From: Candidatus Poribacteria bacterium | GTDB taxonomy: Bacteria > Poribacteria > WGA-4E > WGA-3G | Direction of reading: 5' to 3' | Length of the DNA stretch: 64,000 nt | Assembly: GCA_963663765.2 (NCBI GenBank) | Contig: CAXXUA010000015.1 | Location: 480,001 to 544,000, forward strand | Part shown: piece after piece, positions 5,037-39,642 of the stretch | Position numbering within the stretch: position 1 is the first letter of the stretch | Layout: the number at the start of each line of letters is the position of its first letter | Notes under the pieces: model-generated | The model's database searches: none | Told to the model about the DNA's origin: nothing | The model's input: only the letters and a program-made list of their open reading frames with translations | Made by a program: the position numbers and the translations under genes

Positions 5037-5091
5037 TGTTTTGTAGTGTTATAAGATAATAGACAATATCAGATTCCTTGTACATATTAAA

Positions 5092-5282: not shown

Positions 5283-6371
5283 GTTCAATCCTACACAATT
5301 AAAAACGTTCCTGATATGAATACCGAATGTTCTGTGGATGAACTTGTTTGGTAGTTATCCATTGCCAATTTTGAGAAAATCCTATCTCAACTCCTTGAAA
5401 ATGTGACTCCGCGTGAACAAATGATTATTTGCGATTGCAACTCTCTAACCCTTCAATAATCTTCATGTTAGTAAATTTAGTAAATATTTTCTTATTATGC
5501 ACCCTTTTCGATCTAATACTGTGTCTTTAATTATGAAGGTATCAATAATCTTCATGTTAGTAAATTTAGTAAATATTTTCTTATTATGCACCCTTTTCGA
5601 TCTAATACTGTGTCTTTAATTATGAAGGTATCAATAATCTTCATGTTAGTAAATTTAGTAAATATTTTCTTATTATGCACCCTTTTCGATCTAATACTGT
5701 GTCTTTAATTATGAAGGTATCAAATACCTTTGTTTGGGAAAATCAAAACCAAGCATTATTGCGTAAGTCCTATCGTTTATCAATAACTTGAGAACATTGC
5801 ATCATATTTAATGTTCTTGTTATTGTTGTCCATAAAGGAAGACATGAAAAGTTTACAAAAAGGTAAATGTGAGAAGTTTCCAAGAACACCCGTGGATAGT
5901 TTCCTTGAGTCGTTGCGATTTGCGAAGGCAAAACCGCATATTCCGAAAGGTGCATGTCTTTTAGGTATCGGTACAGGAGATGGTGCTTTCTTACGACACC
6001 TCAATGGACATTTCCACATCGGCGTTGGAATTGATGCAAATCTAACCGAATCCGTTGAATTTGCGGATTATCATCTTGTGAAAGGATACTTTCCACACGA
6101 CTTTGACACAAACAAAACCTTTGATGTCATTACGATGTTGGCGACTGTTGAACATATACCGATGGGGATGCTCCCAAAAGTCGTGGATATGTGTTGGGAT
6201 TACTTCAAACCAGGTGGGCACGTTATTATTACTGTGCCTCATCCTCGTATGGATGGACTTCTGGATTTCCTGAAAAAAACCAGGATAGTCGAAGGTTTCT
6301 CTATGCATGAACATTACGGTTTTGATCCTGAATGTCTGCCAGATGTTTTAACCGTTGGCAACTTGTCCAAA
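5283..6371 (+). repeat. ~1-kb direct repeat, copy 1 (copy 2 at 11682-12673)
   Basis: Near-identical from GTTCAATCCTACAC to CAACTTGTCCAAA; contains the promoter repeats and the methyltransferase. Confidence 0.95.
5454..5722 (+). repeat. 3 x 89-bp tandem repeat, each unit holding the island motif (5498, 5587, 5676)
   Basis: Units start at 5454, 5543, 5632; only two units in the second copy (motifs at 11888, 11977). Confidence 0.95.
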
Positions 6372-6386
6372 CTATCGGAAATATAA
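5811..6386 (+). pseudogene. Class I SAM-dependent methyltransferase, damaged copy
   Basis: Near-identical to 12112..12726, but motif I reads LLGIGTG (D>G), there is a 1-nt loss near 6345 and the C-terminus is truncated at the repeat boundary. Confidence 0.75.
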
Positions 6387-6448
6387 GATGCCTTGATGCA
6401 TCTATATTCTATTCAACTTTAAGTATGAAAGAATAAAGGAGAATTATT

Positions 6449-7090: not shown

Positions 7091-7563
7091 TGGACTGTCT
7101 ACGTGTTCTCGTAACCCTTTTCATTATTACACTGAGTTTCTACCCGCAGACCGGGTGTAAACAGAAGGGGGACACTACGTCCCCCTCCACATCACAACCA
7201 AGTGAAGATAATAAAAAGAAGCTCGTGGAAATAACAGTTGGTGGCAAAGTCTGGAAAGTTGATCCAAATCTCTCCTATCAAGCGACAGGTGTGTGGACAA
7301 ACCCGAAACCAAGATTACTTAGTGATGAAGAAAGAGAACGGATCCAGGAAATACCCGCATTGATCCAAACATTGAAAATGCAGATTGATGAACTTGACAA
7401 GGAAATGAGATACCTTGAACGTATTGAAGAAACACAGATAAAAATTCGTTATAACTTCGGAAAATCACCCGATCTTTCACCTAAAGGCAATAGAGAAATA
7501 ATTGATTTAGGTGAATTCCCAATGGAAATGGAAAATCCTAAGAAAATACCCACAGAACAATAG
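7090..7563 (+). CDS. Lipoprotein, hypothetical (cassette gene B)
   Basis: Lipobox-like QTGC; GGKVWK..P.LSYQATGVWTNP and DLGEFPMEMENP shared with 38220..38735. Confidence 0.82.
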   Translation: MDCLRVLVTLFIITLSFYPQTGCKQKGDTTSPSTSQPSEDNKKKLVEITVGGKVWKVDPNLSYQATGVWTNPKPRLLSDEERERIQEIPALIQTLKMQIDELDKEMRYLERIEETQIKIRYNFGKSPDLSPKGNREIIDLGEFPMEMENPKKIPTEQ

Positions 7564-7571
7564 GAGCTATC

Positions 7572-8600
7572 ATGAAATCCTTTATTAGATTCCTCTGCTT
7601 ATGCATGCTTTTACTACTTCCATTTGCAACACATGCAAGGAACACCGCAGAGTTCGCTGGGGAAGTTATCTTTAAAAATCGAGGGAAAGAAGAACTTTAC
7701 AACGAGCTTTGGATTACCCATATTGAGGACCCAGGGAACGCACGGCTGCTTTATAAACACAATGAGGGAGAAAGGATCATTAAATATGCCATACAGAAAG
7801 ATGGTCCCAACATCGCCATTTCTGCAGGACGTATACCATATGACATTTTCCTAATTAATAGAAATCAACTGAGCAAAGGAGCACGCAACCTTACAAATAA
7901 AAGATTTAATGATATTTGGAGTGTTGACATCTCATCCAACGGAGATATTCTCTTTAGAAACTCACATCCAGTTCCCTTTCCAGAAGTGATTGTAGGGCTT
8001 TATCTCATGCCAAATGATGAAGTCAAAAAGGTAAAACCACAAGCTACACTATTAAAAGAAGGGTCAATAAACTTTGTCCGTTGGTCGCCCGATAACGAAC
8101 ATTTTATATATTTAGATCGGTTTGCCACGGGTCTTTATCTTTACAATCTCCGCACCGGAGAAGATACACTTATCACCAAAGATAATGTGCAGTCTACTCT
8201 CTTATATCCTGCTTTCTCACCGGATGGCAAAAAGCTTGCTTTTATTTATCAACCTAAGATTGAACCTGGTTTTGAACTTGACGTTATTTCACTTGAGACC
8301 CTGTATCCCCAGTTGCTCCCAAATGACCCTAATGGAGATTTGAGATTTAGTCGCATCAAATGGCCTGCGGAAAAGTATCTTGTCTATAGCAAACACGATA
8401 GTCAGAGACAGTCAACAAAAGCAACGCATTTCGTAATCCGCATTGATGGAGGGCCTCCAGAACAAATATTAGAGGGTATGGAGAAGATGTTTGAAAATGG
8501 ACTACCAGTTTTTAAGTTGGGAAACACAACGTTCGCTGTTGAACCCACAAACCGACTAACAACCGTATGGGGAAAACTCAAAACACGCAACCTAAAGTAG
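7572..8600 (+). CDS. TolB-like/PD40 beta-propeller with C-terminal VEP..RLTT.WGKLK tail
   Basis: Signal peptide; WSPD and PAFSPDGKKLAF repeats. Confidence 0.85.
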   Translation: MKSFIRFLCLCMLLLLPFATHARNTAEFAGEVIFKNRGKEELYNELWITHIEDPGNARLLYKHNEGERIIKYAIQKDGPNIAISAGRIPYDIFLINRNQLSKGARNLTNKRFNDIWSVDISSNGDILFRNSHPVPFPEVIVGLYLMPNDEVKKVKPQATLLKEGSINFVRWSPDNEHFIYLDRFATGLYLYNLRTGEDTLITKDNVQSTLLYPAFSPDGKKLAFIYQPKIEPGFELDVISLETLYPQLLPNDPNGDLRFSRIKWPAEKYLVYSKHDSQRQSTKATHFVIRIDGGPPEQILEGMEKMFENGLPVFKLGNTTFAVEPTNRLTTVWGKLKTRNLK

Positions 8601-8658
8601 ACCTAAAACAAGTCAGCAAACGTCAATCATAGGTGCTGCCCGCCCCGGGTCCTAAAAT

Positions 8659-11124
8659 ATGAATGTAAAGTCGCTAATACCACACCTTCAGAATGTTTTC
8701 ACACTTTCTCGGTGTGCAGCACTTCTGCTGTGTAGCAGCATCCTCTTTTTAGCGTTCTGGATACGTATCCAAGGTGTTGATCGAATCCCAGACAAGCAAT
8801 TTACCGATACCGACGGTTATTTCTTTTATGATCAAGCTCAACTCATCACCGAACACGGCACCCTGCCAGACCGGGATATGTCCCGTTGGGTTCCTATCGG
8901 TAAGGATTTGACACAGACACTCCCGTTCTATGGTTACGTGCTTGCATATTCCCACAAAGTGATCGCACGTTTCTTCCCAAAAGTTTCACTGTATCATGTT
9001 TGCATCTATATGCCTGTAGTCTGTTTTATCCTTGGACTCGGGGTGTTGATGTTCTTTTTTTATCATCAGTTTGGGCTACTCTTTTCGGGCATCATCGGTG
9101 TCTTATTAGCAACGCTTCCTGGGGCGATTGACCGAAGCGCAGCCGGTTTTGGTGACCGAGACAGTTGGTGCCTCTTAATTGGCATTCTTGCGATAACCAC
9201 TTATCTCCAAGCACTTCAGGTACAACATCCTCTTCACAGACTCTATTGGACACTTGCAAGTAGCTTCAGCGTCTGTATCGGAGGGTTATCTTGGGTAGGA
9301 TTTAGCATTTTCCTCGTCATTATCATGAGTGTTGAACTCTGGCGGTTTCTCACTTCTGAAAAAGAAGAAGGATTAGGATATTACGCTTTATGGACGTTAA
9401 CTTATGTTCTCCTGCTTATACTCGGTTCTCCTGTCTATCGTGGCGGAGGCGGCGGTTTTACGACACATCTTTTCACCTATGTGATAATACCGCCACTAAC
9501 ACTTTTGGCAATACGCACTTGCCGCTATCTGATACTCACAAAGTCAGCTTTTTCAAAACATCTCTTACAACATTCCCGAAACATAGCCTTCATTCTGATA
9601 ACTATTACACTTACACTTGCACTCTTTACTGTCTTGAGAAAACTTAATACATTTGACACACTACTACCTTTCAGTCAAAACAAACTCATGCAAAGTATTG
9701 GAGAATTACAAAGCCCCAATTACAAGTTTTGGTATATTAAGTTCGGCGGGGTCTTTCTGTGCGGCAGCATCGGATTTCTTCTCACAGGAATACATCCCCG
9801 AAACAGATTCGGGCACCTTCTTTTGGCTATTCCGCTCAGTCTGTTTATCCTCACAACTTTTTACCGAGAACCTGTTAATTTACTTTACATGAGGCTATTT
9901 AAAACTTCGCTTGGTAACACGCTCTTTTTTGCTGCAGTTGGTAGTGTTGGGATCGGTTTTCTGATACATGCATGGCAACGCAAAATACATCTACCAAAAG
10001 ATATTCTTTACGTTGCGTTTTGTGCATGGTTTTTTTGTTGGGTTGCACTTACACGGGACGCTAAACGGTACGACTTTTTTATTGGCGTTGCCGTCGCTTT
10101 CTTTACTGCGGTAGTTATACATGCACTCGCAAAGAGGCTCAGTGAGAAAACAATAAGTTTCCAGTTCACACCCCTATCCTTAAAATCAAATAGGGTACAA
10201 ACTGTTTTTACCACCAGCATTGCGGTTGCGGTGTTATCTTTGTTGTTATTCTGGTCCCCTGCTGGAGCACACACAAGATGGTCACGCCCCGCTGCTGTAC
10301 ACTTCCGAAATCCGCTCCCCGGAGACGGACCAATGGCAAAAACTATCAATTGGATTGCAAATACACTTGAAGAAACTGATGTTGTCGCCGCAAACTGGGA
10401 ATACGGAAATCAACTCAACGTACTCGGTGAAGTCAGAACAATTATCAGTCCCGATCACTACCTTCCTCACTGGATCCATCTCTTTTTTCGACACGTCTAT
10501 GCAGCACAATCTGAAAATGAAGCATTAGAATTTCTTTACACACACGAAGCAACACACTTAATGTTTAATCAAAGGGACGTTCTCAACACGGGCACTTTTT
10601 CAGAACTTGGGAGTGATTTACATAAAGACCGGTTTTTCATACCTCAACATCTACAGTTGTCAAATTCAGAAACTGGAAAAACAAAACATCTCATAAATAC
10701 TGATAATACACCATTTAACAAGATAGATGTGGAGCCTAAGGAATCCCCGTTAACCCTCACAGCACACACAAAAGATGGGCAAAAAGTAACACTTCCCTAT
10801 GTAGCGTTCATAGGTTATCTCAAAGAAAAAACACCGAATACCGTAGATGGTAAAAATGGCGGAGTTATCCTCTATTTAGATCCCAGACGAAATCTCCAAA
10901 AAGCATATTACCTATCTCACATCGGTTGGAATAGTCTCATTGTTAGATTATACATTCGGGGAGAACCTTCCAATGCGTTTGAGCCCATATATACCCAAAG
11001 AGAGGATATAAGAGATCAAAAAATGGTACGATTTGACTTCACCAAAATTTGGAAGATTCGGTATCCACCCAACATCAAAAAGAAACCGAAATATCTTGAA
11101 ACAGAACCGTCTGAAGGGTATTGA
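8659..11124 (+). CDS. STT3/PglB/AglB-like oligosaccharyltransferase (GT-C fold)
   Basis: Many TM helices; TDTDGY, DRSAAGFGDRD, SIGEL, DAKRY and AANWEYGNQL align in order with PglB NDGY, R..G..DxD, TIxE, R375 and WWDYG motifs. Confidence 0.8.
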   Translation: MNVKSLIPHLQNVFTLSRCAALLLCSSILFLAFWIRIQGVDRIPDKQFTDTDGYFFYDQAQLITEHGTLPDRDMSRWVPIGKDLTQTLPFYGYVLAYSHKVIARFFPKVSLYHVCIYMPVVCFILGLGVLMFFFYHQFGLLFSGIIGVLLATLPGAIDRSAAGFGDRDSWCLLIGILAITTYLQALQVQHPLHRLYWTLASSFSVCIGGLSWVGFSIFLVIIMSVELWRFLTSEKEEGLGYYALWTLTYVLLLILGSPVYRGGGGGFTTHLFTYVIIPPLTLLAIRTCRYLILTKSAFSKHLLQHSRNIAFILITITLTLALFTVLRKLNTFDTLLPFSQNKLMQSIGELQSPNYKFWYIKFGGVFLCGSIGFLLTGIHPRNRFGHLLLAIPLSLFILTTFYREPVNLLYMRLFKTSLGNTLFFAAVGSVGIGFLIHAWQRKIHLPKDILYVAFCAWFFCWVALTRDAKRYDFFIGVAVAFFTAVVIHALAKRLSEKTISFQFTPLSLKSNRVQTVFTTSIAVAVLSLLLFWSPAGAHTRWSRPAAVHFRNPLPGDGPMAKTINWIANTLEETDVVAANWEYGNQLNVLGEVRTIISPDHYLPHWIHLFFRHVYAAQSENEALEFLYTHEATHLMFNQRDVLNTGTFSELGSDLHKDRFFIPQHLQLSNSETGKTKHLINTDNTPFNKIDVEPKESPLTLTAHTKDGQKVTLPYVAFIGYLKEKTPNTVDGKNGGVILYLDPRRNLQKAYYLSHIGWNSLIVRLYIRGEPSNAFEPIYTQREDIRDQKMVRFDFTKIWKIRYPPNIKKKPKYLETEPSEGY

Positions 11125-11166
11125 TAAAATTAGTTATGGTGCTATTTGCGTTAATTGGGTTGTGAA

Positions 11167-11701
11167 CATGATGAGAAAATCTAAAATCTGGTTTGTCATA
11201 GCGACTCTTATCGTTGTTGTTATAGGTATTGTTTATGTCAGCACTCAGAGGAAACCTGAATTACGTAGTTCAAGAGGTTTTGCATGGGTTAAACATTGGG
11301 ACGAACTTGAACTTGGCACAGTCAAAAAAAATTATCAACGCTACACCGTTGACGAAATGCGGATACTGTGGGATGTAAAACTACATGATAAGTTTGGTAG
11401 TTATTCAGGCAAAGCGCATGCCGAGACTGTCTACCCATGGGATGCATATCTTGCACGCCTGCTGGAATTAGGACATCCTTTTATTGACTTATCGGACTAT
11501 GAGAGTGCTTTAGACACACGGATGAGTCTTTTAATTCGAACACGAACCTACTGGCAAACGATGAATAGAGATGAAAGAGACGCATATATTAACACACTCG
11601 GATTGTCCCCGGATGCATCATGGGAAAAGTATGAGGAGTCACTGATAAAACAGATCGTTGTTTACCGTATCAATTGGTGGCGTTCAATCCTACACAATTA
11701 A
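11167..11701 (+). CDS. Membrane-anchored hypothetical protein, truncated paralog of 15299..15934
   Basis: 11275-11686 near-identical to 15484-15895; likely start MMRKSKIW; ends where the 1-kb repeat begins. Confidence 0.7.
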
Positions 11702-12673
11702 AAACGTTCCTGATATGAATACCGCATGTTTGGTGGATGAACTCGTTTGGTAGTTATCCATTGCCAATTTTGAGAAAATCCTACCTCAATTCCTTGAAAA
11801 TGTGACTCCGCGTGAACAAATGATTATTTGCGATTGCAACTCTCTAACCCTTCAATAATCTTCATGTTAGTAAATATTTTCTTATTATGCACCCTTTTCG
11901 ATCTAATACTGTGTCTTTAATTATGAAGGTATCAATAATCTTCATGTTAGTAAATTTAGTAAATATTTTCTTATTATGCACCCTTTTCGATCTAATACTG
12001 TGTCTTTAATTATGAAGGTATCAAATACCTTTGTTTGGGAAAATCAAAACCAAGCATTATTGCGTAAGTCCTATTGTTTAACAATAACTTGAGAACATTG
12101 CATCATATTTAATGTTCTTGTTATTGTTGTCCATAAAGGAAGACATGAAAAGTTTACAAAACGGTAAATGTGAGAAGTTTCCAAGAACACCCGTGGATAG
12201 TTTCCTTGAGTCATTGCGATTTGCGAAGGCAAAACCGCATATTCCGAAAGGTGCATGTCTTTTAGATATCGGTGCTGGCGATGGCGCTTTCTTACGACAC
12301 CTCAATGGACATATCCACATCGGCGTTGGAATTGATGCAAATCTAACCCAATCCGCTGAGTTTGAGGATTATCATCTTGTGAAAGGTTACTTTCCGGACG
12401 ACTTTGACACAAACAAAACCTTTGATGTCATTACGATGTTGGCGACTGTTGAACATATACCGATGGGGATGCTCCCAAAAGTCGTGGATATGTGTTGGGA
12501 TTACCTCAAACCTAGTGGTCAGGTTGTTATCACAGTACCTCATCCTCGTATGGATGGACTTCTGGATTTCCTAAAAACTTGCAGGATAGTTGAGGGATTC
12601 TCCATGCATCAGCATTACGGATTTGACCCTGAATGTCTTCCAGATATTTTCAACCGTTGGCAACTTGTCCAAA
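11682..12673 (+). repeat. ~1-kb direct repeat, copy 2
   Basis: Matches 5283-6371; island motifs at 11888 and 11977. Confidence 0.95.
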
Positions 12674-12726
12674 GAGAACGTTGGGGATTTGGATGCAATA
12701 ACCTTTTTCTTTTTGGAAAACGTTGA
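12112..12726 (+). CDS. Class I SAM-dependent methyltransferase (Methyltransf_11/23-like)
   Basis: LLDIGAGDG motif I, GID, FDVITMLATVEH, LKPSGQVVITVP; true start possibly MKSL at 12145. Confidence 0.88.
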   Translation: MFLLLLSIKEDMKSLQNGKCEKFPRTPVDSFLESLRFAKAKPHIPKGACLLDIGAGDGAFLRHLNGHIHIGVGIDANLTQSAEFEDYHLVKGYFPDDFDTNKTFDVITMLATVEHIPMGMLPKVVDMCWDYLKPSGQVVITVPHPRMDGLLDFLKTCRIVEGFSMHQHYGFDPECLPDIFNRWQLVQRERWGFGCNNLFLFGKR

Positions 12727-12881
12727 CTGTTATCCCTGCTCTGCAGGTGAAATTTATAACTATTGCTTATTTTTTAATTCGAAAAATTCAGTGGAAAACA
12801 TAAAATTGAATACATGCAAATCACAAACGCATTGTTTTCCACGGACCGCCACAAAAACAAAGTGGCAAGGAGAATAACAAA

Positions 12882-13796
12882 ATGAAAAGAAGATTCGTTG
12901 AATGCGCTATCCTTTTAGGTATTGTGATGTCTGTCATGCTTTTTGCACAGACACAAGATGGATTAGGACATAGTGCCTGTATGCACCTCCCTGTTTTTTA
13001 TGTTGATTCAGCGGGATGCAATATTGGAGACGGGAGCGGAGATGATCCGAGAGGTTTAGATTTTCAAACTATGGGCGGTTATGAATTTCAAACTATGGGC
13101 GGTTATGAATATAGTCACAGTCACATAAGCACTGGTCATGGATGGTATTACCAAGGCGGATTGTTGAATCTTGCAGATCAGGAAGCAACGAATAATCCGA
13201 GTAGTATTAATCACCCAGGTGACACTACTAAACAAAAGATTTATAAAATGGATGTTATAACTGTATGCTTAACTAATGTCTCTACTGCTAGTGCAAGTAT
13301 AACTCCGTCTCTTAGCTATGCTGATGCCTTGCCCCAAAAGGACGATAATATCCAAGGAACAGGAACAATAGAACTTTCGTTCTCAGGTGTGTGCTATCAT
13401 GAGATCCGTTCGAATGGGAAAAATCGCCGATGGTGTGTTGAAAATACAAGAGGAAGTACCCTATGGGGACCTAAAACAGAGGTGATTTGGGTTAAGATTA
13501 GGATATTAGAACACGCCTCAAAAAGAGAAGGTTCTTTCGGTGGAGGACTTGGAGGAGCCTACGGAAGTATTTCATCTGGGTACTCTCACAGTGATCAGGT
13601 GACCGAAAAAAATATTCATGCCCGGTCCTTTGGAATAAATGCTAAGCTCCGAGGTCAGCATTTTGACAATGTTATAGAGAAACAAGACAAATTTTCTTAC
13701 GCATACGGGAGTCTTGAGTCTGCAAATTCTGGTGATGTCTGCAGCACATATCTAGGTATTGATGATCATCAATGTCCAGGCTCGGGTTCGCAATGA
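12882..13796 (+). CDS. Secreted hypothetical protein, Gly/Ser/Cys-rich
   Basis: Signal peptide; AAGGAG RBS; internal FQTMGGYE duplication; followed by hairpin. Confidence 0.78.
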   Translation: MKRRFVECAILLGIVMSVMLFAQTQDGLGHSACMHLPVFYVDSAGCNIGDGSGDDPRGLDFQTMGGYEFQTMGGYEYSHSHISTGHGWYYQGGLLNLADQEATNNPSSINHPGDTTKQKIYKMDVITVCLTNVSTASASITPSLSYADALPQKDDNIQGTGTIELSFSGVCYHEIRSNGKNRRWCVENTRGSTLWGPKTEVIWVKIRILEHASKREGSFGGGLGGAYGSISSGYSHSDQVTEKNIHARSFGINAKLRGQHFDNVIEKQDKFSYAYGSLESANSGDVCSTYLGIDDHQCPGSGSQ

Positions 13797-13834
13797 AGGT
13801 TGGAACATCTCAAATAATAAACAAAACTCTACCT

Positions 13835-13862
13835 TTGGGACGGGTACTAAATCCCGTCCCAA
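13835..13862 (+). terminator. Stem-loop after secreted-protein gene
   Basis: TTGGGACGGG-TACTAAAT-CCCGTCCCAA perfect stem, no U-tract. Confidence 0.5.
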
Positions 13863-13932
13863 CGTATCAATAGGAGCAGTGTAGGACTGACAACCTATAA
13901 GACAGGCACCTTATAATTCTGAGGAACCCAAA

Positions 13933-15312
13933 ATGAATAAACAGATGATTTTGACAACCATAATATCGCTCATTGTGGTTATAGGCGTTGTTCTCTATAT
14001 TAGCAATAAAAATAAAGACTCGCAACTTGGTATAGAAAAACAGCTCAAGTCAAAGCTGCACGAACACATCGCGCCCGATGGGACTTTTATAGAACATCGC
14101 CATACTTACACACAAAACGAACTATCAGAAAATATCGTGACAACGCGCCAGGTACTCGCTGCAAAGTCCCCCATCCAACGGGCGTGGGAACGTCTTGACC
14201 TTGAAGAAATCCGACGAAAATATCAACCCTATACAGTTGCTGAAATGCATGAAATGTGGTCGTCTGGTTATAGAAGCCAATTTGGCCCCAATTATCCATA
14301 TCAACTTGATGAGACTTATCCACAAGATGAATGGCTTGAACGTAATTTGGCACTTGGACAACCATTTTCTAGTTGGTCAGACTATAGAATGGTGTTGCAG
14401 CGACGCATATACATGATAGACCATGAAAATCAATGGCGGGTAGCAAATGAAGACAGAAAAGAATACATGCGTAAAGCACTTGATTTGCCATCTGATATAG
14501 ATACTTGGGAGGAATATGAAGAAGCATACCTTAAGTTCTTTATTGTTGCCTCAAACGCAGAACTACAAGCAGAAGAAGCAGATCCGAGTATTTTAGGTGG
14601 TACCACAAGAACCGATGGAACGTTCACTCCTTTTAAAGAGAATACTGTGTATGCTCACATCAATCCTAAAAGTGGTTATGTAAAGTTCACAGGTGTGTCG
14701 TTAAATGAGAAAGAAGAAAAGGAACTGGCAACGTATGGTGTTGTCCCTGAAGGGATTAAAGTCATCTATACGGATGAGGGTGGAAAGCCTTTACCATCGG
14801 ACACACCATCTCCGCGTTTCTATGAACGTGATATGGCATCGTTGGAAAAATCGCTAAACCTCCTGCAACAGCAGATAGAAGAGCATGAACTGTTGTTAGA
14901 GTTGGACGCGCAGCTCGATCCTCCTAATATAGCAACGCAAACTGATCCCGTGCCACACGAACACCCACAGGATCATGAACATGACCACGGACATGAAACA
15001 CCTCAAACCCCTGATGAAAAACCCGAACAGCAACGCCGGCAGCCCGATGCAAAACGGACACCACCGCCGCGAAAAATACCGCCTGAACTCCGTAAACCCG
15101 ATGCGGTCAATCAGTGGTTTAAAGAACTGCAGTTACTCCATGGTGGTCAATTACCGAAAGATTTGCAGGAACTCCGAAAAATCATTACGGAATTGGAAAA
15201 GATCAGGGAAGAAGGTGAAGCGATCATGAAGCCACCCGAACGCCCAAAACGCCCGACACCACCTTTGCCACCTGAAGGAAGTCCACCACCTCCACCGAAT
15301 GAAGATGATTAA
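13933..15312 (+). CDS. Membrane-anchored hypothetical protein with His- and Pro-rich C-terminus
   Basis: N-terminal TM; W..LDL....YQ.YT..EM..W and YP...L..G.PF....DY blocks shared with 15299..15934. Confidence 0.82.
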   Translation: MNKQMILTTIISLIVVIGVVLYISNKNKDSQLGIEKQLKSKLHEHIAPDGTFIEHRHTYTQNELSENIVTTRQVLAAKSPIQRAWERLDLEEIRRKYQPYTVAEMHEMWSSGYRSQFGPNYPYQLDETYPQDEWLERNLALGQPFSSWSDYRMVLQRRIYMIDHENQWRVANEDRKEYMRKALDLPSDIDTWEEYEEAYLKFFIVASNAELQAEEADPSILGGTTRTDGTFTPFKENTVYAHINPKSGYVKFTGVSLNEKEEKELATYGVVPEGIKVIYTDEGGKPLPSDTPSPRFYERDMASLEKSLNLLQQQIEEHELLLELDAQLDPPNIATQTDPVPHEHPQDHEHDHGHETPQTPDEKPEQQRRQPDAKRTPPPRKIPPELRKPDAVNQWFKELQLLHGGQLPKDLQELRKIITELEKIREEGEAIMKPPERPKRPTPPLPPEGSPPPPPNEDD

Positions 15313-15934
15313 GGTAGTGGGTTTTGCAAGAAACACAGTGAAAACTCCAATAATAAGGTTCGTTATTGTCATCATAAGCGTTGCTACTGTGTGTTTCATC
15401 TATTTCAGGACGCAGAAGGTAGAGGCACCCTCACCAGTAAACGTTACCGAACAAGAACACAACCTAAAATTGCAAGGTGTTAAAGGTTTTGCATGGTTTA
15501 AAAATTGGGACGAACTTGACCTTGCCACAGTCAAAAAATACTATCAACGCTACACCATTGATGAAATGCGGATACTGTGGGATGTAAAACTACATGGTAA
15601 GTTTGGTAGTTATTCAGGCAAAGCGTATGCCGAGACTGTCTACCCATGGGATGCATATCTTGCACGCCTGCTGGAATTAGGACATCCTTTTATTGACTTC
15701 TCGGACTATGAGAGTGCTTTAGACACACGGATGAGTCTTTTAATTCGAACACGAACCTACTGGCAAACGATGAATAGAGATGAAAGAGACGCGTATATAA
15801 ACATACTCGGATTGTCCCCGGATGCAACATGGGAAAAGTATGAGGAGTCACTGATAAAACAGATCGTTGTTTACCGTATCAATTGGTGGCGTTCAGGTGG
15901 TATGGACCCTTTCTCAGAGTTGGAATTCCGATAG
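15299..15934 (+). CDS. Membrane-anchored hypothetical protein, same family as 13933..15312
   Basis: N-terminal TM; shared motifs; overlaps the stop of the upstream gene. Confidence 0.8.
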   Translation: MKMIKVVGFARNTVKTPIIRFVIVIISVATVCFIYFRTQKVEAPSPVNVTEQEHNLKLQGVKGFAWFKNWDELDLATVKKYYQRYTIDEMRILWDVKLHGKFGSYSGKAYAETVYPWDAYLARLLELGHPFIDFSDYESALDTRMSLLIRTRTYWQTMNRDERDAYINILGLSPDATWEKYEESLIKQIVVYRINWWRSGGMDPFSELEFR

Positions 15935-15979
15935 GTTACCTATTTATTGTTGTCGTCACGATTTCTGATTGTAATAAAA

Positions 15980-16729
15980 ATGAAACATTTATTAACACTT
16001 ATCGGTTTCCTTGTCGTCATCGGGTTCAGTATAACTGTATTTTTTGTCCTCGGACGTTGGCGAGGTTCTGAAGCAATAAATATACCTAATGTCCCCGGAC
16101 AACAAATAGAAGGCACTGCTCAGGATATAAAAACGCAGAAACGCACACCGCGAAAGCAGAACCCTATCCAGAAAAGCAATGATAAGACCTCTAACGACCC
16201 AGAAGACTTCTACCGTGTTATTATTGAAAATAACATATTTCGCCCTCTGAACTGGAAACCGACACAACCAGAACCAACGTATACATTGCTTGGGACCGCT
16301 ATTACACCAGATGGTAATTCCGCTACTGCATACATAACTGAGCGGAAAACCAAACAGTTTTACGCGGTGAAGATAGGTGAGAAGATAGGTGATGCCGTCG
16401 TCAAAAAAATTCAGACGAAGCAGGTTACGTTAGACAAAAACGGTAAGATGTTGAGTCTTTCTATGGTTTCTGTCCCGTTTCTCAGCCGGACCGGCAGTCG
16501 TAGCAGTCCAGCCTATCGCGCACCACAGCCGCAGCCGCAAATGGTATCCAAAAGTAGCAACTCACACCGCACACAACCACGTACGACGAAGGACCAAGAA
16601 CGTCAAGCATGGCGCGATATGCAAAAGGAACGGATAGCAGAAATGAAAAAAATGGCTGAAAAACTCCGTACTACCTCAGAGGAGGAACGCAGACGGATGC
16701 GGGAACATCTTGAACAACAGAAACGTTAA
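15980..16729 (+). CDS. GspC/PilP-like (T2SS protein C HR domain) membrane protein
   Basis: N-terminal TM; YTLLGT...ATAYI.....QFYAVKIGEKIGDAVVKKIQ.KQVTL pattern; ATG at 15980 (ORF track starts at 15947). Confidence 0.65.
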   Translation: MKHLLTLIGFLVVIGFSITVFFVLGRWRGSEAINIPNVPGQQIEGTAQDIKTQKRTPRKQNPIQKSNDKTSNDPEDFYRVIIENNIFRPLNWKPTQPEPTYTLLGTAITPDGNSATAYITERKTKQFYAVKIGEKIGDAVVKKIQTKQVTLDKNGKMLSLSMVSVPFLSRTGSRSSPAYRAPQPQPQMVSKSSNSHRTQPRTTKDQERQAWRDMQKERIAEMKKMAEKLRTTSEEERRRMREHLEQQKR

Positions 16730-19274
16730 AATCCCAGATAAGACAAAACACAAAACATATCAAATGAACCACTCTTTGCTCTCTCGTATCGGTGCATTAA
16801 TCTTGTTCGTCGCAATTATATTTATAACGTTTTGGATCCGTATACAGGGCGTAGAACGTATTCCAGATGGACAATTCACTGCAAATGATGCCTATCTCTA
16901 CTATTGGAACGCACAAAGAATCGCTGAACTCGGACATCTCCCTGCTATTGACGAACACCGTTGGCTGCCTCAAGGGAGAGACGTAAGTCAAACGCTTGCT
17001 TTTTACTCGTACATCTTGGTTTACGCGCACAAAATTATAGAACCTTTCTTTTACAAAGTGTCCCTCTATGATGTCCAACTTTATGCCCCTGCAGTCTGTT
17101 TTACGCTTGGACTCGGTATCTTAGCACTATTTCTCATCCGCACAGTCGGTTTTCTCTTTGCTTTTATTGTTACCGTGCTACTAGCAACGTTACCGGGTTG
17201 TGTGGATAGAAGTGCCGCTGGCTTTAGTGATAGAGATGCATGGTGTTGGTTATTAGGTACCCTTGCTGTTGTCTCTTATCTCTGGAAAGAAACGATACCT
17301 CTAAATCCCCCTGATAAGGGGGACAAAGGAGGTTCCACTCCTGATAAGGACAAAGACGATGTTATCCCTGTCAATGGAGACAAGGGTGATTCTATTTCTA
17401 TCACGTGGAGAAGATTGATCGGTAATTGGCGTAGGTACATTGCTACTGCCCTGTGCGGGTTTATCGTTTTCTTAGGCGGTCTTTCATGGGAAGGGTTCGG
17501 CGTATTTCTCTTAGTCATTCTCTTGACTGAGCTTTGGAAGTTCTGCACTACCGACACAGAAAAGGGTTTGCTTGAGTATGCAATATGGGTGGCAATGTTC
17601 GTACCATGGCTCTATCTCGCTTCACCTGTATATCAGCGCGGGCAGTTTTTCGCTGCACATCTTACTGCCCTTGTGTTGGTGCCACCGCTTGTTGTTCTCA
17701 GCCTCCGAGGAACGCGATATCTCCTGCTTCACTTCTTTAGACCGATCCGACCCCATGCAAGAAAACTCGCGGGACTTCTTACACTTCTGGCAATTGCTAT
17801 TGGTGGATTTTACGTTTTTTTCCAAGTTGATACATTTGCAAGTACTGCGCTCCCGTTTAGTGAAAACCGACTGATGCAACAGACAACCGAACTATACAAC
17901 CCAAGTTTTAGCTATTGGGTGTCACGATATGGTGGCGTGTTTGTTCTGGGCAGTATCGGATTAGTCGGTACATGCTTCCATTTGTGGAAATGGGAAGGTC
18001 TCCTTTTGGCTACTGCACTTTCCATGTTTTCATCCACTACTTTCCTGCAAATTCCACTAACAGGTTTAATAGGTGTTACTCTATGTGATGCGTTGTTCTT
18101 TGCTTCGTTAGGTCTTGCGGTCATCGGTATCGGTTTTGCGTGCATCCGAAAAGTAACTACCCAAAACGAATATGCCTTTATCGGAACCATCGTATGGTTT
18201 CTGTTATGGGTCGGTTTATCAAGGGACGCGTTACGTTACGACTTCTTTATCGGAGTTCCATTAGCAATCGGTACCGCAGTTATTCTGGTCCGTTCGATCA
18301 CGTCTAGAAAACTTATTCTCATCAGCAATAAGCCCATTCATCCTAAACTCATAACAGTCGCGTTTGCAATTGGCATGTTGGTTCTGCTTCTGTTTTTGCC
18401 ACCCGCCGGTGGCTTTGCAAAGAGTACAATCCCAGCTGCCAGTACACGTCCCTTGGTACCTGGGAGGGGGAGTTTGCCGCAGGCATATACATGGATGAAG
18501 AACAAACTGCCCGAAGATACAACGGTGATCGCAGCAAACTGGGGATACGGCAGTCAACTCAACGTTTTCGGTGGTGTAAAAACCATCGTTGACCAGGACC
18601 ATTTTATCCAACACTGGATATATCTTTACTATCGGCACGTTTATTGCGCGCAATCTGAACAAGAAGCTTTAGAATTCCTCAAAACACACAATGCAACCCA
18701 TCTGATGTTAATCGCCAGTGACCTAATACCGGGGGCAAGGAAGGTTTCCTTTGTCGGTAGTGATGAAGACTTTGATAGACACTTTGATCTGCATGAGTTA
18801 GCGTTGCTGCCTACTACCCTTGGAACACAGTATACTCTTGCACCAAGAAGACATCAAGAGCGTTTCATACCACCGACAACCTTAACTTCTATTGATATAG
18901 TTGGGACAGATGCTGAGAATTTGTCTGTGACTGCCCGTTTCAAAGATGATGAAACAATCCAACTTCCTTATATTGCTTATGTTGGAAGTCAACAGGTTAT
19001 CCCACAGCAAACAGTTGATACTGAAAAAGGTGGGGTTGTGCTATTATTTGATTCACACAAAATCCTTCGCAATAGTTTTTTTATCAACGATATTGGTTGG
19101 AACAGTCTCGCTGTCAAGTTATTTATACGCGGTGAACACTCTGATGCTTTTGAAAACGTGCATACAATCACCCCACAAGGTATAGATGTCCCACCTGAAA
19201 TCAAAATATGGAAAATCAATTATCCACCAGACATCAAAAAGAAGCAGAAATACCTTGAAACAAATTTCCAATAA
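16710..19274 (+). CDS. STT3/PglB/AglB-like oligosaccharyltransferase, paralog of 8659..11124
   Basis: FTANDAY, DRSAAGFSDRD, QTTEL, DALRY, AANWGYGSQL; likely start at ATG 16764. Confidence 0.8.
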   Translation: MNNRNVKIPDKTKHKTYQMNHSLLSRIGALILFVAIIFITFWIRIQGVERIPDGQFTANDAYLYYWNAQRIAELGHLPAIDEHRWLPQGRDVSQTLAFYSYILVYAHKIIEPFFYKVSLYDVQLYAPAVCFTLGLGILALFLIRTVGFLFAFIVTVLLATLPGCVDRSAAGFSDRDAWCWLLGTLAVVSYLWKETIPLNPPDKGDKGGSTPDKDKDDVIPVNGDKGDSISITWRRLIGNWRRYIATALCGFIVFLGGLSWEGFGVFLLVILLTELWKFCTTDTEKGLLEYAIWVAMFVPWLYLASPVYQRGQFFAAHLTALVLVPPLVVLSLRGTRYLLLHFFRPIRPHARKLAGLLTLLAIAIGGFYVFFQVDTFASTALPFSENRLMQQTTELYNPSFSYWVSRYGGVFVLGSIGLVGTCFHLWKWEGLLLATALSMFSSTTFLQIPLTGLIGVTLCDALFFASLGLAVIGIGFACIRKVTTQNEYAFIGTIVWFLLWVGLSRDALRYDFFIGVPLAIGTAVILVRSITSRKLILISNKPIHPKLITVAFAIGMLVLLLFLPPAGGFAKSTIPAASTRPLVPGRGSLPQAYTWMKNKLPEDTTVIAANWGYGSQLNVFGGVKTIVDQDHFIQHWIYLYYRHVYCAQSEQEALEFLKTHNATHLMLIASDLIPGARKVSFVGSDEDFDRHFDLHELALLPTTLGTQYTLAPRRHQERFIPPTTLTSIDIVGTDAENLSVTARFKDDETIQLPYIAYVGSQQVIPQQTVDTEKGGVVLLFDSHKILRNSFFINDIGWNSLAVKLFIRGEHSDAFENVHTITPQGIDVPPEIKIWKINYPPDIKKKQKYLETNFQ

Positions 19275-19421
19275 GATAAACAGGCATGACAGTTAATATT
19301 ATCATTTTTATCTACTCTTATTACCCCTACAAAGCGCACCTACCATTTAGTGCGTAAGTCCTGATTAGAAAAAAAGGAGAATCTGAGTCCATCTGAACGT
19401 TAGGTAAATAGGGGCAGACAT

Positions 19422-36178: not shown

Positions 36179-37264
36179 TCACTGTTTCAACTTTCCCCAG
36201 AGCGTCGTCACTCGGTTCTTATGTTCAACATCAAACGGTACTTCGCTCGTTGTCCAATCAAATAATGACACGCCCCTTCCTTGCATATCCAAAATTTTTA
36301 CCTCAGGCCCACCGTCAAAAGGTATTGCGTAAGTATGATATGAAAAATTTGGCCTGAGAAACGCTCCACCGTAAGCTGTATAAACGATGTGCTCTCCATC
36401 GGGTGACCATTTTAGGTCTAAGAAGTCAAAGTGAGGTGAAAGGTTTCTTATAACCCTCAAAGGACGTATATTACTAACTGAGAAAATACTAATTTCATGT
36501 GCCGGTCCGAAAAACCTATAAGCAAAAGCAAGCTTTTTACCATCCGGTGAAAAGGCAGGCATACTCCCATCTTTGCTTACACGTATAACTTCTCCGGTTT
36601 TGGTCTTGAGAAGAAAAATGCCTTCGGCAGTATCATAAGCGATATGAGCTTTGTCTGACGACAAAACGACGCGGTGTGCCTCAACTTCTTTTATCAATGT
36701 TTCTCTTATAGGCGGCACATCGATTTGTGGTAATTGTGTTATTAATTGTTGTATTTCAGTAAAAATAGAGGTGGTTGGGTTGTCTATTTCATATTTTTGA
36801 AATAGATAGATCCCGCTCATTGGCGGAGGATTTGTGCGAAGTTTACCATCAAGGTCTCTGGCAAGCAGATAGTTTGTGAAGATGACATCTCCGTGTTGTG
36901 AGATGTCAACATCAAGAATCTCATTAAATCGCTGATGTGTTAGGAGTTGTCCTTCCTGATGGATATTATCTGTATCTATAAGATAAATATCAAATGTTAA
37001 ATCCTGCTGATCGTATTCGGTCAGAGTAGCGATATAAGGACCATTCTTTTGAACAGAGAACCCGCGAATATTGTATTCGTGTCTAAATAGCAATCGGGCG
37101 TTACTCACATCTGTCACATCGGTAATCCATAGTTCATTGAGGTTATCAGGATGTCTATAAACAACCTCACCTGTCACTTCGGCATCTATCGTTGCTGGGA
37201 GGAACACACACACACCCAGAAAAAGAATTATGGCAATATATCTCATTTTTTTAGTTTTCCCCAT
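36179..37264 (-). CDS. TolB-like beta-propeller with WGKLK tail
   Basis: PAFSPDGKKLAF, WSPDG; paralog of 7572..8600; start probably at MRYIA. Confidence 0.85.
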   Translation of the reverse strand: MGKTKKMRYIAIILFLGVCVFLPATIDAEVTGEVVYRHPDNLNELWITDVTDVSNARLLFRHEYNIRGFSVQKNGPYIATLTEYDQQDLTFDIYLIDTDNIHQEGQLLTHQRFNEILDVDISQHGDVIFTNYLLARDLDGKLRTNPPPMSGIYLFQKYEIDNPTTSIFTEIQQLITQLPQIDVPPIRETLIKEVEAHRVVLSSDKAHIAYDTAEGIFLLKTKTGEVIRVSKDGSMPAFSPDGKKLAFAYRFFGPAHEISIFSVSNIRPLRVIRNLSPHFDFLDLKWSPDGEHIVYTAYGGAFLRPNFSYHTYAIPFDGGPEVKILDMQGRGVSLFDWTTSEVPFDVEHKNRVTTLWGKLKQ

Positions 37265-38211
37265 AGTGTCGTTAGTCTATTTATAGGTTCAACAGGATAC
37301 GTAGTTGTCTTCCAATAATCAAACATTGGTACACCGTGTTCAAACATATCTAAAATTATTTCGTAGGATCCTCCATCAACAGGAATCGCTATGTTGTTAT
37401 AGGCAGTCCCTTTATTGAAGAGTTTCTTGCCGTATGTTGTATAAACGATATGTCTCCCATCGGGTGACCATTTGAGACCGAGGAATGCCGCGTGAGGCAC
37501 AAAATCTTTTGTAATCTTCAAAGAACGTAAGGTGTCAATTGAGATAATCTCAAGTTCATGTGTGATCCCTAAAAACCTGTGAATAAGTGCAAGATTTTTA
37601 CCATCCGGAGAGAACGCAGGCATACTCGCACCTTTGTTAACTCGGAAGTCCTCCCCAGTATTGATGTTAAGAAGGAAAATACCTTCTGAAGTATCATAAG
37701 ATACATAATTACCGTTTGGTGACCAGACAAGATTATTGGCGTTAACTTTTTTTAACTGTTTTATCTGCGGAATTGTCTTTTTTATTTCGCTTCTTGAAAT
37801 GAGGTAAATACCGCGCGTACGTGCATCCAGATTTTTACCAGTGAATACAATATCTCCGCGTTGCGAAATACTCACATTTAAAATATCAGAATACCTTAAT
37901 TGTGTAAGATTGTGTTCTTCTACAAGAATAGAATTTGTATCAAACAGGTATAATTCAGCTAGCCAAGGTTTGTCTTCACGTGCAGAAACAGTAGCAATAT
38001 AAGCACCGTTTTTTTGAACTGAGAGTCCATATATCGCTTGTTTCATTTCAAAAAGTAGACGCGGGTTATTTGTATCATTAAAATCAACGATCCATAATTC
38101 GTTGGTATTGTCTGGATGAACAAAAACTACCTCACCATTAACTTTCGCTTGCGTTGTAAGCGGAAAGAGAACAATCAACCAAAGATATAAAGTTGTGAGT
38201 AGACATTTCAT
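37243..38211 (-). CDS. TolB-like beta-propeller with WGKLK tail
   Basis: GEVVF....NELWI, PAFSPDGK, PVEPINRLTTLWGKLKK. Confidence 0.85.
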   Translation of the reverse strand: MKCLLTTLYLWLIVLFPLTTQAKVNGEVVFVHPDNTNELWIVDFNDTNNPRLLFEMKQAIYGLSVQKNGAYIATVSAREDKPWLAELYLFDTNSILVEEHNLTQLRYSDILNVSISQRGDIVFTGKNLDARTRGIYLISRSEIKKTIPQIKQLKKVNANNLVWSPNGNYVSYDTSEGIFLLNINTGEDFRVNKGASMPAFSPDGKNLALIHRFLGITHELEIISIDTLRSLKITKDFVPHAAFLGLKWSPDGRHIVYTTYGKKLFNKGTAYNNIAIPVDGGSYEIILDMFEHGVPMFDYWKTTTYPVEPINRLTTLWGKLKK

Positions 38212-38219
38212 GATTACAC

Positions 38220-38735
38220 CTATTTTTCTAAATGAACTTTCGTTGGGTTTTCCATTTCCATTGGGAATTCACCTAAATCAGTTATCTTGTCGGCTGAAAA
38301 ATCGGACGGTTTAGGTAACGGATAAGGTGGTTTACCAAAACTATAACGAACTTTTATTTCTGGTTGGTCAATACGTTGTAGGAAGTTTAGTTCCTTGTCA
38401 AGTTTATCAAGTTGCGTTTTCAATGTTGCAATATCATCTGTAATAACTTGTATCCGACTCTTTTCAGCATCTGTTAACGGACGCGGGTCTGGGTTGGTCC
38501 AAACACCTGTCGCTTGATAGGAAAGTTTCGGATTGATTTTCCAAACCTTTCCGCCAATTGTCACCTCTGTGGTCAACTCCTTATTTTCATCATTATGGTC
38601 TTTATTTTCTTCCTGTTGAGTTGGTGTAGATGTGGACGTAGTGTCTCTATTTTGTTCACATCCTATCTGCGATAAGATGACTATTGATAGTGTGAAAAAA
38701 CAGATGAAACGAATATTACACATAATATACCTCAT
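38220..38735 (-). CDS. Lipoprotein, paralog of 7090..7563 (cassette gene B)
   Basis: QIGC lipobox-like; shared GGKVWK and LSYQATGVWTNP blocks. Confidence 0.82.
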   Translation of the reverse strand: MRYIMCNIRFICFFTLSIVILSQIGCEQNRDTTSTSTPTQQEENKDHNDENKELTTEVTIGGKVWKINPKLSYQATGVWTNPDPRPLTDAEKSRIQVITDDIATLKTQLDKLDKELNFLQRIDQPEIKVRYSFGKPPYPLPKPSDFSADKITDLGEFPMEMENPTKVHLEK

Positions 38736-38834
38736 ATCATTTATAATTTGAACTAAAATAGTAACTTACAATCTATGAAACTATGTTGTGGATGGGACAA
38801 CATGCCCCATCCTGTTTACAGCATAACATTAGAA

Positions 38835-39416
38835 TTAAATACCTGATGCATTAATTCTGACATTCACTCGAACACCTTGAATTCCCAATGCTGCAGAAGT
38901 AGATGCAGATCCATTGCCAGCATCGTCAAAATCAATGGTATGCTGATCCCACGCCATCATCCAATCGGGATCATTTCCTCCTAATGCTGCATCACCAGGA
39001 CCACGAGCATGATTTACTTGTGGTCTACCGGGCAACCGAACCCATGCATTTCCACGACCCTGCTCAGCGTCTACGAGTGTGCTTAACGCTAAAGCCCAAT
39101 AATTAACTTCCCAATTCTCATCCGCATCTTCGGTGATATCCGCACCGCCTGCGACAGCAACGGATCCAAGTGTATTCCCATCATCATCAAGACGATCTAC
39201 TTGTAACCAAACTAATGCGTTCTTATTAATCAAATCTACATCCCAACCTTGGACGACATTTTCATAGGGACCCCCTTTTATAAATTCAAGCTCAACGCCC
39301 CCTCCCGGATTGACAATTTCTCCGATGGCATTATTGAGAATGATGTTACCGAAAACGAATGCCCCTACGAACATTAACGCTATGATTATGCTGTTTCTGA
39401 ATTTCCTATTTTGCAT
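38835..39416 (-). CDS. Secreted protein, distant paralog of 6449..7090 (cassette gene A)
   Basis: Start MQNRKF after AAGGAG; similar signal (FVGAFVFGNIILNNA), DDDGN motif, YWA.A, WV..PG. Confidence 0.8.
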   Translation of the reverse strand: MQNRKFRNSIIIALMFVGAFVFGNIILNNAIGEIVNPGGGVELEFIKGGPYENVVQGWDVDLINKNALVWLQVDRLDDDGNTLGSVAVAGGADITEDADENWEVNYWALALSTLVDAEQGRGNAWVRLPGRPQVNHARGPGDAALGGNDPDWMMAWDQHTIDFDDAGNGSASTSAALGIQGVRVNVRINASGI

Positions 39417-39642
39417 GTTAGTTCTCCTTTTGTTATCCAAGTCTCAATTTGCGAAATATAAAGCAAGCAAAGTGTTAACTTTTTATTGCTTATTTTTACA
39501 AATTGCGACTCAGGTCTACTCATATAAAACAAATATCAGCTTTAAACTATTATTTCAGAACTGAAAGTACCAACTAAAATGAACACTATAAAAACGGTAA
39601 CCTTCCAAAACAAATTGATAGTGACATAATAGCATTTTCTCT

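Follow-up and report, generated by a model that had tools for sequence, protein, structure and literature searches.

STT3-like GT-C transferases with a rewritten WWDYG motif in small gene cassettes of Candidatus Poribacteria

Two gene runs and their transferases

The window analyzed here comprises 64,000 nt of Candidatus Poribacteria DNA (contig CAXXUA010000015.1; all coordinates refer to this window). Between 5.8 and 19.3 kb, the + strand carries two runs of tightly packed genes, each containing one large transferase that resembles the catalytic subunits of oligosaccharyltransferases (OSTs). These two enzymes, here called A and B, are anciently diverged paralogs within a large STT3/AglB-type GT-C subfamily, in which the catalytic residues are retained and the WWDYG motif is rewritten. 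The first run reads, in order, MT1, p6449, p7090, p7572, A, and a 177-aa DUFx gene. The second reads MT2, p12882, p13933, p15299, a GspC-like protein, and B (Table 1).

The proteins encoded between methyltransferase and transferase display hydrophobic, signal- or anchor-like N-termini, as judged by direct inspection of the sequences with no predictor involved. For p7572, the PD40 repeat is matched at 3e-5 (24.3 bits vs a cut-off of 20.9), accompanied by a weak match to TolB. Judging from its sequence, the product of 15947-16729 resembles GspC in one small domain only, with matches to PF11356 (T2SSC; 2.8e-5, 24.4 vs 27 bits) and NF041515 (GspC_delta; 2.1e-7, 31 vs 150 bits) that stay below the cut-offs; a box FYRxIIxNNIFRPLxW is invariant in this protein. 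The end of its gene overlaps the TTG start called for B, for which ATG 16764 is the likelier start because P0121, a relative with 91% identity, begins to align only at residue 19. Each transferase had initially been described as closing its own cassette, which does not strictly apply to A, as the 177-aa DUFx gene at 11168-11701 comes after it. A scan of 5000-19600 returned 28 promoter-like sites (35.5 expected) and 17 terminator-like sites (11.7 expected), numbers that are uninformative.

The methyltransferases MT1 and MT2 are 88% identical proteins, and the surrounding DNA (5283-6371 vs 11682-12673) is ~95% identical, the two copies differing by one 89-bp repeat unit. Within this tract, 5283-5634 matches 11682-12024 at 95.7%, and 5566-6371 matches 11867-12673 at 94.8% over 807 nt. 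A further pair, 11275-11574 and 15484-15783, displays 96% DNA identity. These tracts stem from recent duplication or conversion, superimposed on paralogs of much greater age, and both cassettes therefore probably share a promoter region. The initial annotation noted correctly that both cassettes start with the same methyltransferase. As an independent sign of functional coupling, however, we reject this repeat, because it reflects recent duplication or gene conversion (DNA ~95% identical, against 43% identity between A and B). The methyltransferase homologs found beside 12 of 70 paralogs elsewhere in the family offer a better argument for coupling than the repeat does. The C-terminus of MT1 departs from that of MT2, from the usual ending of the family, ...RWxLxxxERWxxGxNxLFxF, and from the cluster c9 representative; by this comparison, the gene heading cassette 1 may be a truncated copy.

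Table 1. Positions of the two gene runs and related features in the window
Feature	Position	Strand	Annotation
Upstream region of cassette 1	5283..5810	+	Copy 1 of ~1.1-kb duplication 5283-6371; has 89-bp internal repeat
MT1, class-I SAM methyltransferase, 191 aa	5811..6386	+	Methyltransf_23 E 2.9e-13; no hydrophobic N-terminus
p6449, 213 aa	6449..7090	+	N-terminal hydrophobic anchor; no known family
p7090, 157 aa	7090..7563	+	Signal/lipoprotein-like N-terminus; no family above cut-off
p7572, 342 aa	7572..8600	+	Signal-peptide-like N-terminus; PD40/TolB-type beta-propeller repeat
A, STT3-like GT-C transferase, 821 aa	8659..11124	+	Motifs; profile of the family
DUFx-1, 177 aa from MMRKSK	11168..11701	+	N-terminal TM (transmembrane) helix, then all-alpha domain
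Upstream region of cassette 2	11682..12111	+	Copy 2 of the duplication
MT2, methyltransferase, 204 aa	12112..12726	+	Methyltransf_23 E 2.2e-14
p12882, 304 aa, secreted-looking	12882..13796	+	Conserved signal-like N-terminus and DPR motif; no known family
DUFx-long (p13933), 459 aa	13933..15312	+	TM helix, DUFx domain, Pro-rich C-terminal tail
DUFx-2 (p15299), 211 aa	15299..15934	+	Helical AF2 (AlphaFold2) model
GspC-like protein, 260 aa, likely start ATG 15980	15947..16729	+	TM helix, small beta domain, charged C-terminal tail
B, STT3-like GT-C transferase, 854 aa from TTG	16710..19274	+	Motifs, profile, AF2 model
ECF sigma factor fused to BNR/sortilin-type propeller, 968 aa	19422..22328	-	Convergent with B
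Second cassette-1-type gene set	36179..39440	-	One p6449-like, one p7090-like, two p7572-like

An STT3-type subfamily with altered sequon-reading residues

Aligned from end to end, A and B share 43% of their residues (363/854). In A, the motifs of the fold are found as TDGYF (aa 51-55), RSAAGFGDRD (aa 159-168), IGELQ (aa 347-351), and RDAKRYD (aa 466-472), so that D53, R159, D166, D168, E349, and R470 make up a complete catalytic set. The equivalent motifs of B are NDAYL (aa 59-63), RSAAGFSDRD (aa 167-176), TTELY (aa 392-396), and RDALRYD (aa 505-511), which supply D60, R167, D174, D176, E394, and R509. At the WWDYG site, A reads NWEYG (aa 579-583, nt 10393-10407) and B reads NWGYG (aa 610-614, nt 18537-18551), while the region of the DK motif is occupied in B by D628, D630, and R642. 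The functions of these positions can be gauged from PglB: in the passages of PMC7226087 that deal with its active site, D56 and E319 hold both the metal and the Asn carboxamide; further metal ligands are D154, D156, and R147; R375 is the residue that contacts the pyrophosphate; and WWD hydrogen-bonds the +2 Ser/Thr hydroxyl, in a pocket completed by the Lys of the DK motif or the Ile of MxxI.

Sequence profiles offer a first view of the family to which the two enzymes belong. Of 38 relatives compared with PF02516, 31 exceed its cut-off, though A and B themselves do not; P0001, 87% identical to A, reaches 61.6 bits vs a gathering cut-off of 24.5. The best NCBIfam match for both enzymes is TIGR04154, the archaeal (archaeosortase-A-associated) STT3 model, which scores A at 42.8 bits and B at 51 bits, both far below the curated cut-off of 450. 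In a phmmer search against the PDB, B has a single match, the C-terminal domain of yeast Stt3 (E 0.0036), which places AANWGYGSQL of B opposite AAWWDYGYQI of the yeast protein; the same search with A returned no matches. A profile of 79 relatives is far more sensitive than either single query, since all 18 distinct PDB sequences it matched are OST catalytic subunits (human STT3A 3e-40, yeast Stt3 6e-35, AglB 2e-21, PglB 1.4e-9), with no ArnT or PMT among them. Against human STT3A, this profile pairs tDay with FDPY, RSaaGFaDRD with RSVAGSYDNE, vgElq with VSEHQ, AkRy with MVRL, and AAwWdyGsq with MSWWDYGYQ.

The structural comparison agrees with the profile search. The AF2 model of B is of high confidence (pLDDT 90.7, pTM 0.92), and its Foldseek matches in the PDB at ranks 1-19 are all AglB, STT3A/B, Stt3, or PglB, the best being 7e9s at 8.9e-17. 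Below the OSTs appear DPY19 (1.9e-8), ArnT (rank 25, E 6e-4), AftD, and Pmt4 (8.7e-3). Each family member combines a 13-helix membrane domain with an OST-type C-terminal periplasmic domain. The STT3/PglB-type identity proposed at first is thus borne out, as OSTs, rather than ArnT or PMT, are the best structural matches and the motif correspondence holds in alignment. An identity as a GT-C of the ArnT/PMT type (GT83/GT39) is not supported, with ArnT and Pmt4 far below the OSTs. To our knowledge, WWDYG is treated as a signature of every N-oligosaccharyltransferase. A and B belong to the STT3 structural superfamily, but they are not filed as canonical oligosaccharyltransferases, because this one defining feature fails.

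The subfamily turned out to be large. An exhaustive search with B, covering 1.84 billion cluster representatives, found 626 related ones at E <= 1e-3, of which 119 lie at <= 1e-30; the group is therefore well separated from mainstream STT3. A word-indexed search with A returned 612 proteins, and among the 120 listed, the 10 that carry an organism name are all "Candidatus Poribacteria bacterium". In a scan of 185,579 species genomes, 409 stretches matched and 341 of these encode a relative. The best 80 stretches gave 73 loci, every one in Candidatus Poribacteria records, distributed over 39 assemblies with up to 8 loci per metagenome-assembled genome (MAG). Such paralogs had been called unusual in a bacterium. 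That stands, but the scale was underestimated: what we observe is a phylum-wide expansion of paralogs, not two genes. In passages of Lombard 2016 (PMC4973528), the bacterial STT3 homologues described are only a few and fall within euryarchaeal AglB. Our full-text literature search returned no relevant paper linking Poribacteria with STT3, oligosaccharyltransferase, or N-glycosylation.

We placed 70 poribacterial sequences and 33 more distant representatives in a FastTree phylogeny rooted on the WWDYGYW group. The poribacterial sequences form one clade (support 100, stem 0.91), within which A and B sit in different basal subclades of 14 rows each. WWD is kept in 18 of the 33 more distant sequences. 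As the tree nests the poribacterial clade among these WWD-keeping sequences, replacement of the first Trp is derived and common to the whole clade; the motif is labile in the wider group too, because the other 15 of these 33 depart from it as well. A homolog search with P0168 retrieved metagenomic proteins, two rows named "asparagine N-glycosylation enzyme membrane subunit Stt3", one Poribacteria protein, and one fungal STT3. In L003, L027, L051, L021, L031, L053, L056, and other loci, the STT3-like gene is split into at least two open reading frames (ORFs), representing either pseudogenes or MAG assembly errors.

Conservation was counted in the 70 full-length poribacterial relatives, which have a mean identity of ~45% (B numbering). 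The catalytic residues are invariant: D60 in 68/68, R167, D174, and D176 each in 69/69, and E394 and R509 each in 70/70. The same holds for W611 and G614 (both 70/70), N618, and D630. At the first position of WWDYG, by contrast, Trp occurs in 0/70 relatives and is replaced by N (38), H (18), D (4), I (3), K (2), R (2), Q, T, or G (one each). The third position is G in 26, S in 12, D in 11, N in 7, P in 5, E in 4, T in 3, and R and I in one each. The entropies of these two positions, 1.97 and 2.60 bits vs a median of 1.34, are high, and positions 610 and 612 are flanked by the almost fixed A608, A609, W611, and G614. The two WWDYG residues that bind the +2 Ser/Thr are thus replaced and differ between paralog lineages amid fixed surroundings, and the intact catalytic set with a rewritten WWDYG, as initially annotated from two genes, extends to the 70 relatives.

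Further differences lie next to the motif. The residue directly after it is S, T, I, or N, never Tyr, in the poribacterial relatives. In the DK-motif region, TIVDQDH...YYR of B lies opposite LVDNNTW...VGK of the yeast protein, with R642 on K586; this position is Arg in 60/70 relatives. At the position of Asp628, 69/70 relatives have Asp and A alone has Ser (S597); its closest relatives were read there as Gly, Ser, or Asp. Several lineages display a motif of their own. NWSYG-SRLNV is found in 10/11 rows of the clade containing the c14-STT3-MT cassettes, IWDYG in 3/3 members of the c12-STT3-GspC-PMT_2 lineage, HWPYG in 3/3 members of the C39-STT3 lineage, NWDYG in the MacB-linked group, and NWGYG in 6/7 close orthologs of B. 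The motif thus partly tracks function or context.

Several known systems offer a frame for these enzymes. With AglB/STT3 (CAZy GT66), A and B have in common the overall fold, the domain order, and the best profile and structural matches, together with the EL1 Asp, the D-x-D/E, the EL5 Glu, the phosphate-binding Arg, the W, Y, and G of WWDYG, and an Arg opposite the Lys of the DK motif. They differ at the first Trp and the Asp of WWDYG, by the Ser/Asn that replaces Tyr after the motif, by their bacterial host, and by the many paralogs per genome. PglB, the Campylobacter-type N-OST, is likewise a single-subunit bacterial enzyme with the same fold (6gxc 5.2e-14, 3rce 6e-13), but it is farther in sequence than STT3/AglB (1.4e-9 vs 3e-40). 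PglB, described in part in passages of PMC7226087, has both WWDYG and the MxxI motif and sits in the pgl glycan-assembly locus, whereas A and B have no such locus around them and are found only in small cassettes of exported proteins. The archaeosortase-A-associated STT3 of TIGR04154 is an earlier example of an OST paralog linked to a protein-processing system of its own; A and B score at about one tenth of its cut-off, and neither the window nor the recurrent neighbor families showed an archaeosortase or exosortase gene.

Gene neighborhoods and candidate acceptors

To compare the cassettes across paralogs, ORFs of the 73 loci and the window were called and clustered by single linkage, and the 70 STT3-like ORFs of at least 600 aa were analyzed. 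B and 13 of the loci form one clade. In 12 of these 13, the order p12882, one or two DUFx genes, GspC-like protein, and STT3-like enzyme is retained, while the 13th locus is cut by a contig end. The identity of the enzymes within this clade falls to ~50%. For B, the cassette first proposed from a single locus is therefore a real, conserved one, its gene order recurring in 12 other poribacterial loci.

Across all 70 paralogs, counting neighbors on the same strand only, a GspC-like protein is the most frequent companion (20/70), followed by a 235-aa GT2 within three genes downstream (16, of which 4 are in the clade of B), DUFx (14), the methyltransferase (12), the p12882 family (11), small Cys-rich exported peptides (10), a CDP-alcohol phosphatidyltransferase and a MacB-type permease (9 each), a LolA-like/C39-peptidase/DUF1573 protein (6), an ECF sigma factor (5), and a PMT_2-type GT-C (3). 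The best NCBIfam matches of the 235-aa GT2 are polyprenyl-phosphate sugar synthases, namely AglJ (4.4e-46), dolichyl-phosphate hexose transferase (2.8e-30), PpgS, and ArnC. Its gene directly follows the enzyme in L007, L009, and L010, all in the clade of B, and follows the split copy in L051.

Three-component periplasmic glycosylation modules consist of a polyprenyl-phosphate GT2, a flippase, and a GT-C, as in ArnC/ArnT, GtrB/Gtr, and CsbB/YfhO. The small GT2 after the GT-C in 16/70 cassettes resembles this arrangement. Here, however, the GT-C is of the STT3 type, with ArnT being a weak structural match (6e-4), and no flippase gene was recognized.

A different module is found upstream of some paralogs (L003, L012, L013, L026, L028, L032, L067, and others). 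It comprises a small exported Cys/Gly-rich peptide, a WD40-repeat protein of ~650-720 aa, a MacB-type ABC permease, and the 342-aa protein c12, after which come the STT3-like gene and then the GT2 or the CDP-alcohol transferase. Other cassettes encode small peptides ending in ...GGCNS, together with the LolA-like/C39-peptidase/DUF1573 protein. Such modules look as if small peptides were exported and processed next to the transferase.

The acceptor question can be approached from the cassette proteins. The sequons initially pointed out, NVT, NVS, and NKS in p6449 and NVS in p12882, carry no signal, as N-X-S/T occurs no more often than by chance in the eight cassette proteins: p6449 contains 3 such sites where residue shuffles average 1.9 (P = 0.29), and p12882 contains 1 where they give 2.3. 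The protein p12882 evolves fast, although its orthologs occupy the same place in 12 loci; in the ESM Atlas, its best score of 0.77 was to unnamed clusters and gave no usable lead. The DUFx paralogs comprise 11168-11701, 15299-15934, and the N-terminal half of 13933-15312, with 23 relatives among 5.8 billion clustered proteins. The model of p15299 (pLDDT 79.9) has no PDB match (best E 4.7), and the ESM Atlas gave no lead for it. A complex prediction of B (residues 19-854) with the GspC-like protein (residues 12-175) scored 0.00, which, being obtained without controls, weighs neither way.

Cassette 1 has a second set of paralogs on the - strand of the window. It includes a p6449-like gene at 38835-39440 (29% identical), a p7090-like gene at 38220-38735 (50% identical), and two p7572-like PD40 paralogs within 36179-38211 (35% and 32% identical).

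The remainder of the window holds several features apart from the transferases. On the - strand at 800-1543, the ORFs 1073-1543 and 800-1069 would join into one 247-aa frame if the TGA at 1073-1075 were read as selenocysteine, giving ...FLTPV-U-PMC..., in which UxxC would be a redox motif. Its upstream portion is matched by Pfam GRDB (selenoprotein B) up to profile position 345/347; the stretch is thus a candidate for a GrdB-like selenoprotein, predicted from the frame and the GRDB match. Intergenic repeats include a 128-bp tandem pair at 22692-22947, related to 4470-4660, and 157- and 122-bp-spaced repeats at 4044-4296. Two ThsB-like TIR-domain proteins (32457-33029 and 40057-40692, +; PF08937 2.5e-14 and 5.7e-14), two DDE transposases (43306-43953 and 46057-47220, +), and an N-terminal fragment of HsdM (34530-34994) suggest a stretch rich in defense and mobile elements. 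At 24693-29107 (+), consecutive genes encode a PD40 propeller, a membrane protein resembling A24 prepilin peptidases, and a multihaem cytochrome/DsbA fusion; this series is syntenic with L040 3784-7916 at 73-80% identity, and in L040 another STT3-like paralog lies ~2 kb beyond.

Proposed function and competing explanations

The reading toward which we lean, by a little, is that A and B are active periplasmic GT-C transferases with lineage-specific altered acceptor recognition, the co-encoded envelope proteins being their candidate acceptors. Activity itself is most likely, because the metal, acceptor-carboxamide, and lipid-phosphate residues are strictly conserved; this is a prediction from residue conservation. 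On the outer side of the inner membrane, a polyprenyl-phosphate carrier would supply the sugar. The targets are probably not N-X-S/T sites, because the residues that read this signal are replaced; acceptor recognition would then have been rewired and diversified, with each paralog serving a different acceptor outside N-X-S/T. The best candidates would be the exported or membrane-anchored proteins of the same small operon, which for B means p12882, the DUFx proteins, and the GspC-like protein. By analogy with other paralog cassettes, the donor may be polyprenyl monophosphate carrying a single or short sugar, a product of the AglJ-type GT2, and a non-HexNAc donor would fit. Because the window has no AglJ-type GT2, the donor would come from elsewhere in the genome. 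The small cytoplasmic methyltransferase may modify the donor sugar.

A number of observations weigh against this proposal. No acceptor was identified for A or B, and neither glycosylation of co-encoded proteins nor a new sequon, both suggested in the initial annotation, is supported, in contrast to the two ORFs and their STT3/PglB-type identity, which stand as described. The N-X-S/T counts lie at or below shuffle expectation in all eight cassette proteins, and the p12882 family displays no conserved acceptor Asn, including at its NVS site. The second cassette-1 set has no adjacent STT3-like gene. The 73 loci are those most similar to B and no random sample, and among these loci, chosen in that way, the cassette-1 proteins have no homologs, so that the cassette of A stands only as a candidate. 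Within the window, there is no homolog of the GT2 or the CDP-alcohol transferase, and a Pfam hmmscan gave no PF02516 match for A or B at E <= 0.1. The motif varies even at short distances: the clade of B contains NWGYG, TWGYG, HWEYG, QWDYG, DWDYG, HWTYG, HWGYG, and HWGNG, and proteins 63-87% identical to A read NWEYG, NWTWG, or NWGRG. Such variation is compatible with diversifying acceptor recognition and equally with relaxed constraint. On the technical side, the tree is from FastTree only, with long-branch warnings, and an unrelated WD40 family, joined to the STT3 cluster through a chimeric ORF (L053 2596-3375), had to be removed before the counts.

Three other explanations compete with this proposal. 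The enzymes might be active but transfer to a non-protein envelope molecule (lipid, peptidoglycan, or polysaccharide) or to a broad set of proteins, the cassette proteins being accessory, scaffolding, or merely co-regulated. Loss of the +2 Ser/Thr readers removes the only feature that ties the fold to peptide sequons, and systems that modify lipid A, teichoic acid, or O-antigen likewise pair a GT2 with a GT-C. A PMT_2-type GT-C adjoining 3/70 paralogs, cassette proteins that are wholly different between paralog types, and the occurrence of cassette-1 proteins without a transferase point the same way. We nevertheless regard this explanation as unlikely. D60 and E394, which form the Asn-carboxamide clamp in OSTs, are invariant; the whole periplasmic peptide-binding domain is retained, including W611, Y/F613, G614, and the Arg aligned to the DK-motif Lys; and the order of the B cassette is kept down to ~50% enzyme identity.

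The invariant clamp would equally suit ordinary N-oligosaccharyltransferases with a merely relaxed sequon, which would modify Asn of many periplasmic proteins and make the paralogs redundant. Conservation of all catalytic residues, D at the third motif position in 11/70, and retention of WWD in 18/33 of the more distant relatives agree with such a scenario. It accounts poorly, however, for the absence of the first Trp from all 70 relatives, and redundancy does not predict that lineages keep distinct motifs along with distinct conserved neighbors, so that we consider it quite improbable. Least probable of all is that the altered motif marks a lost transferase function, leaving decaying copies, hydrolases of lipid-linked sugars, or structural membrane proteins. 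The variation of positions 610 and 612 even among close orthologs, the split family ORFs in several loci, and the Ser of A where 69/70 relatives keep Asp628 speak for such a loss. Yet ten catalytic or structural residues are invariant over the 70 paralogs, both A (821 aa) and B (854 aa) are open frames of full length, B gives a confident model, and split ORFs in MAGs may be assembly errors.

The proposal of altered acceptor recognition can be carried further, to an STT3-type toolkit whose sequon-reading residues are re-tuned to a private, cassette-encoded envelope protein or Cys-rich peptide, with the sugar supplied from polyprenyl monophosphate. This extended version we put forward only tentatively, as a possibility. 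If true, such a toolkit would represent bacterial protein glycosylation of an undescribed kind, independent of sequons and dedicated to the cassettes, and would amount to a natural library of OST acceptor specificities. A lineage in which the catalytic machinery stays and the two sequon-reading residues are replaced and vary would illustrate how the choice of acceptor can evolve in the OST fold. It could point to glycosylation, of protein or other molecules, outside the N-X-S/T rule, and it would offer natural glyco-engineering scaffolds with new site specificities. Poribacteria are uncultured and in part sponge-associated, and the many copies per genome mark something important for their envelope.

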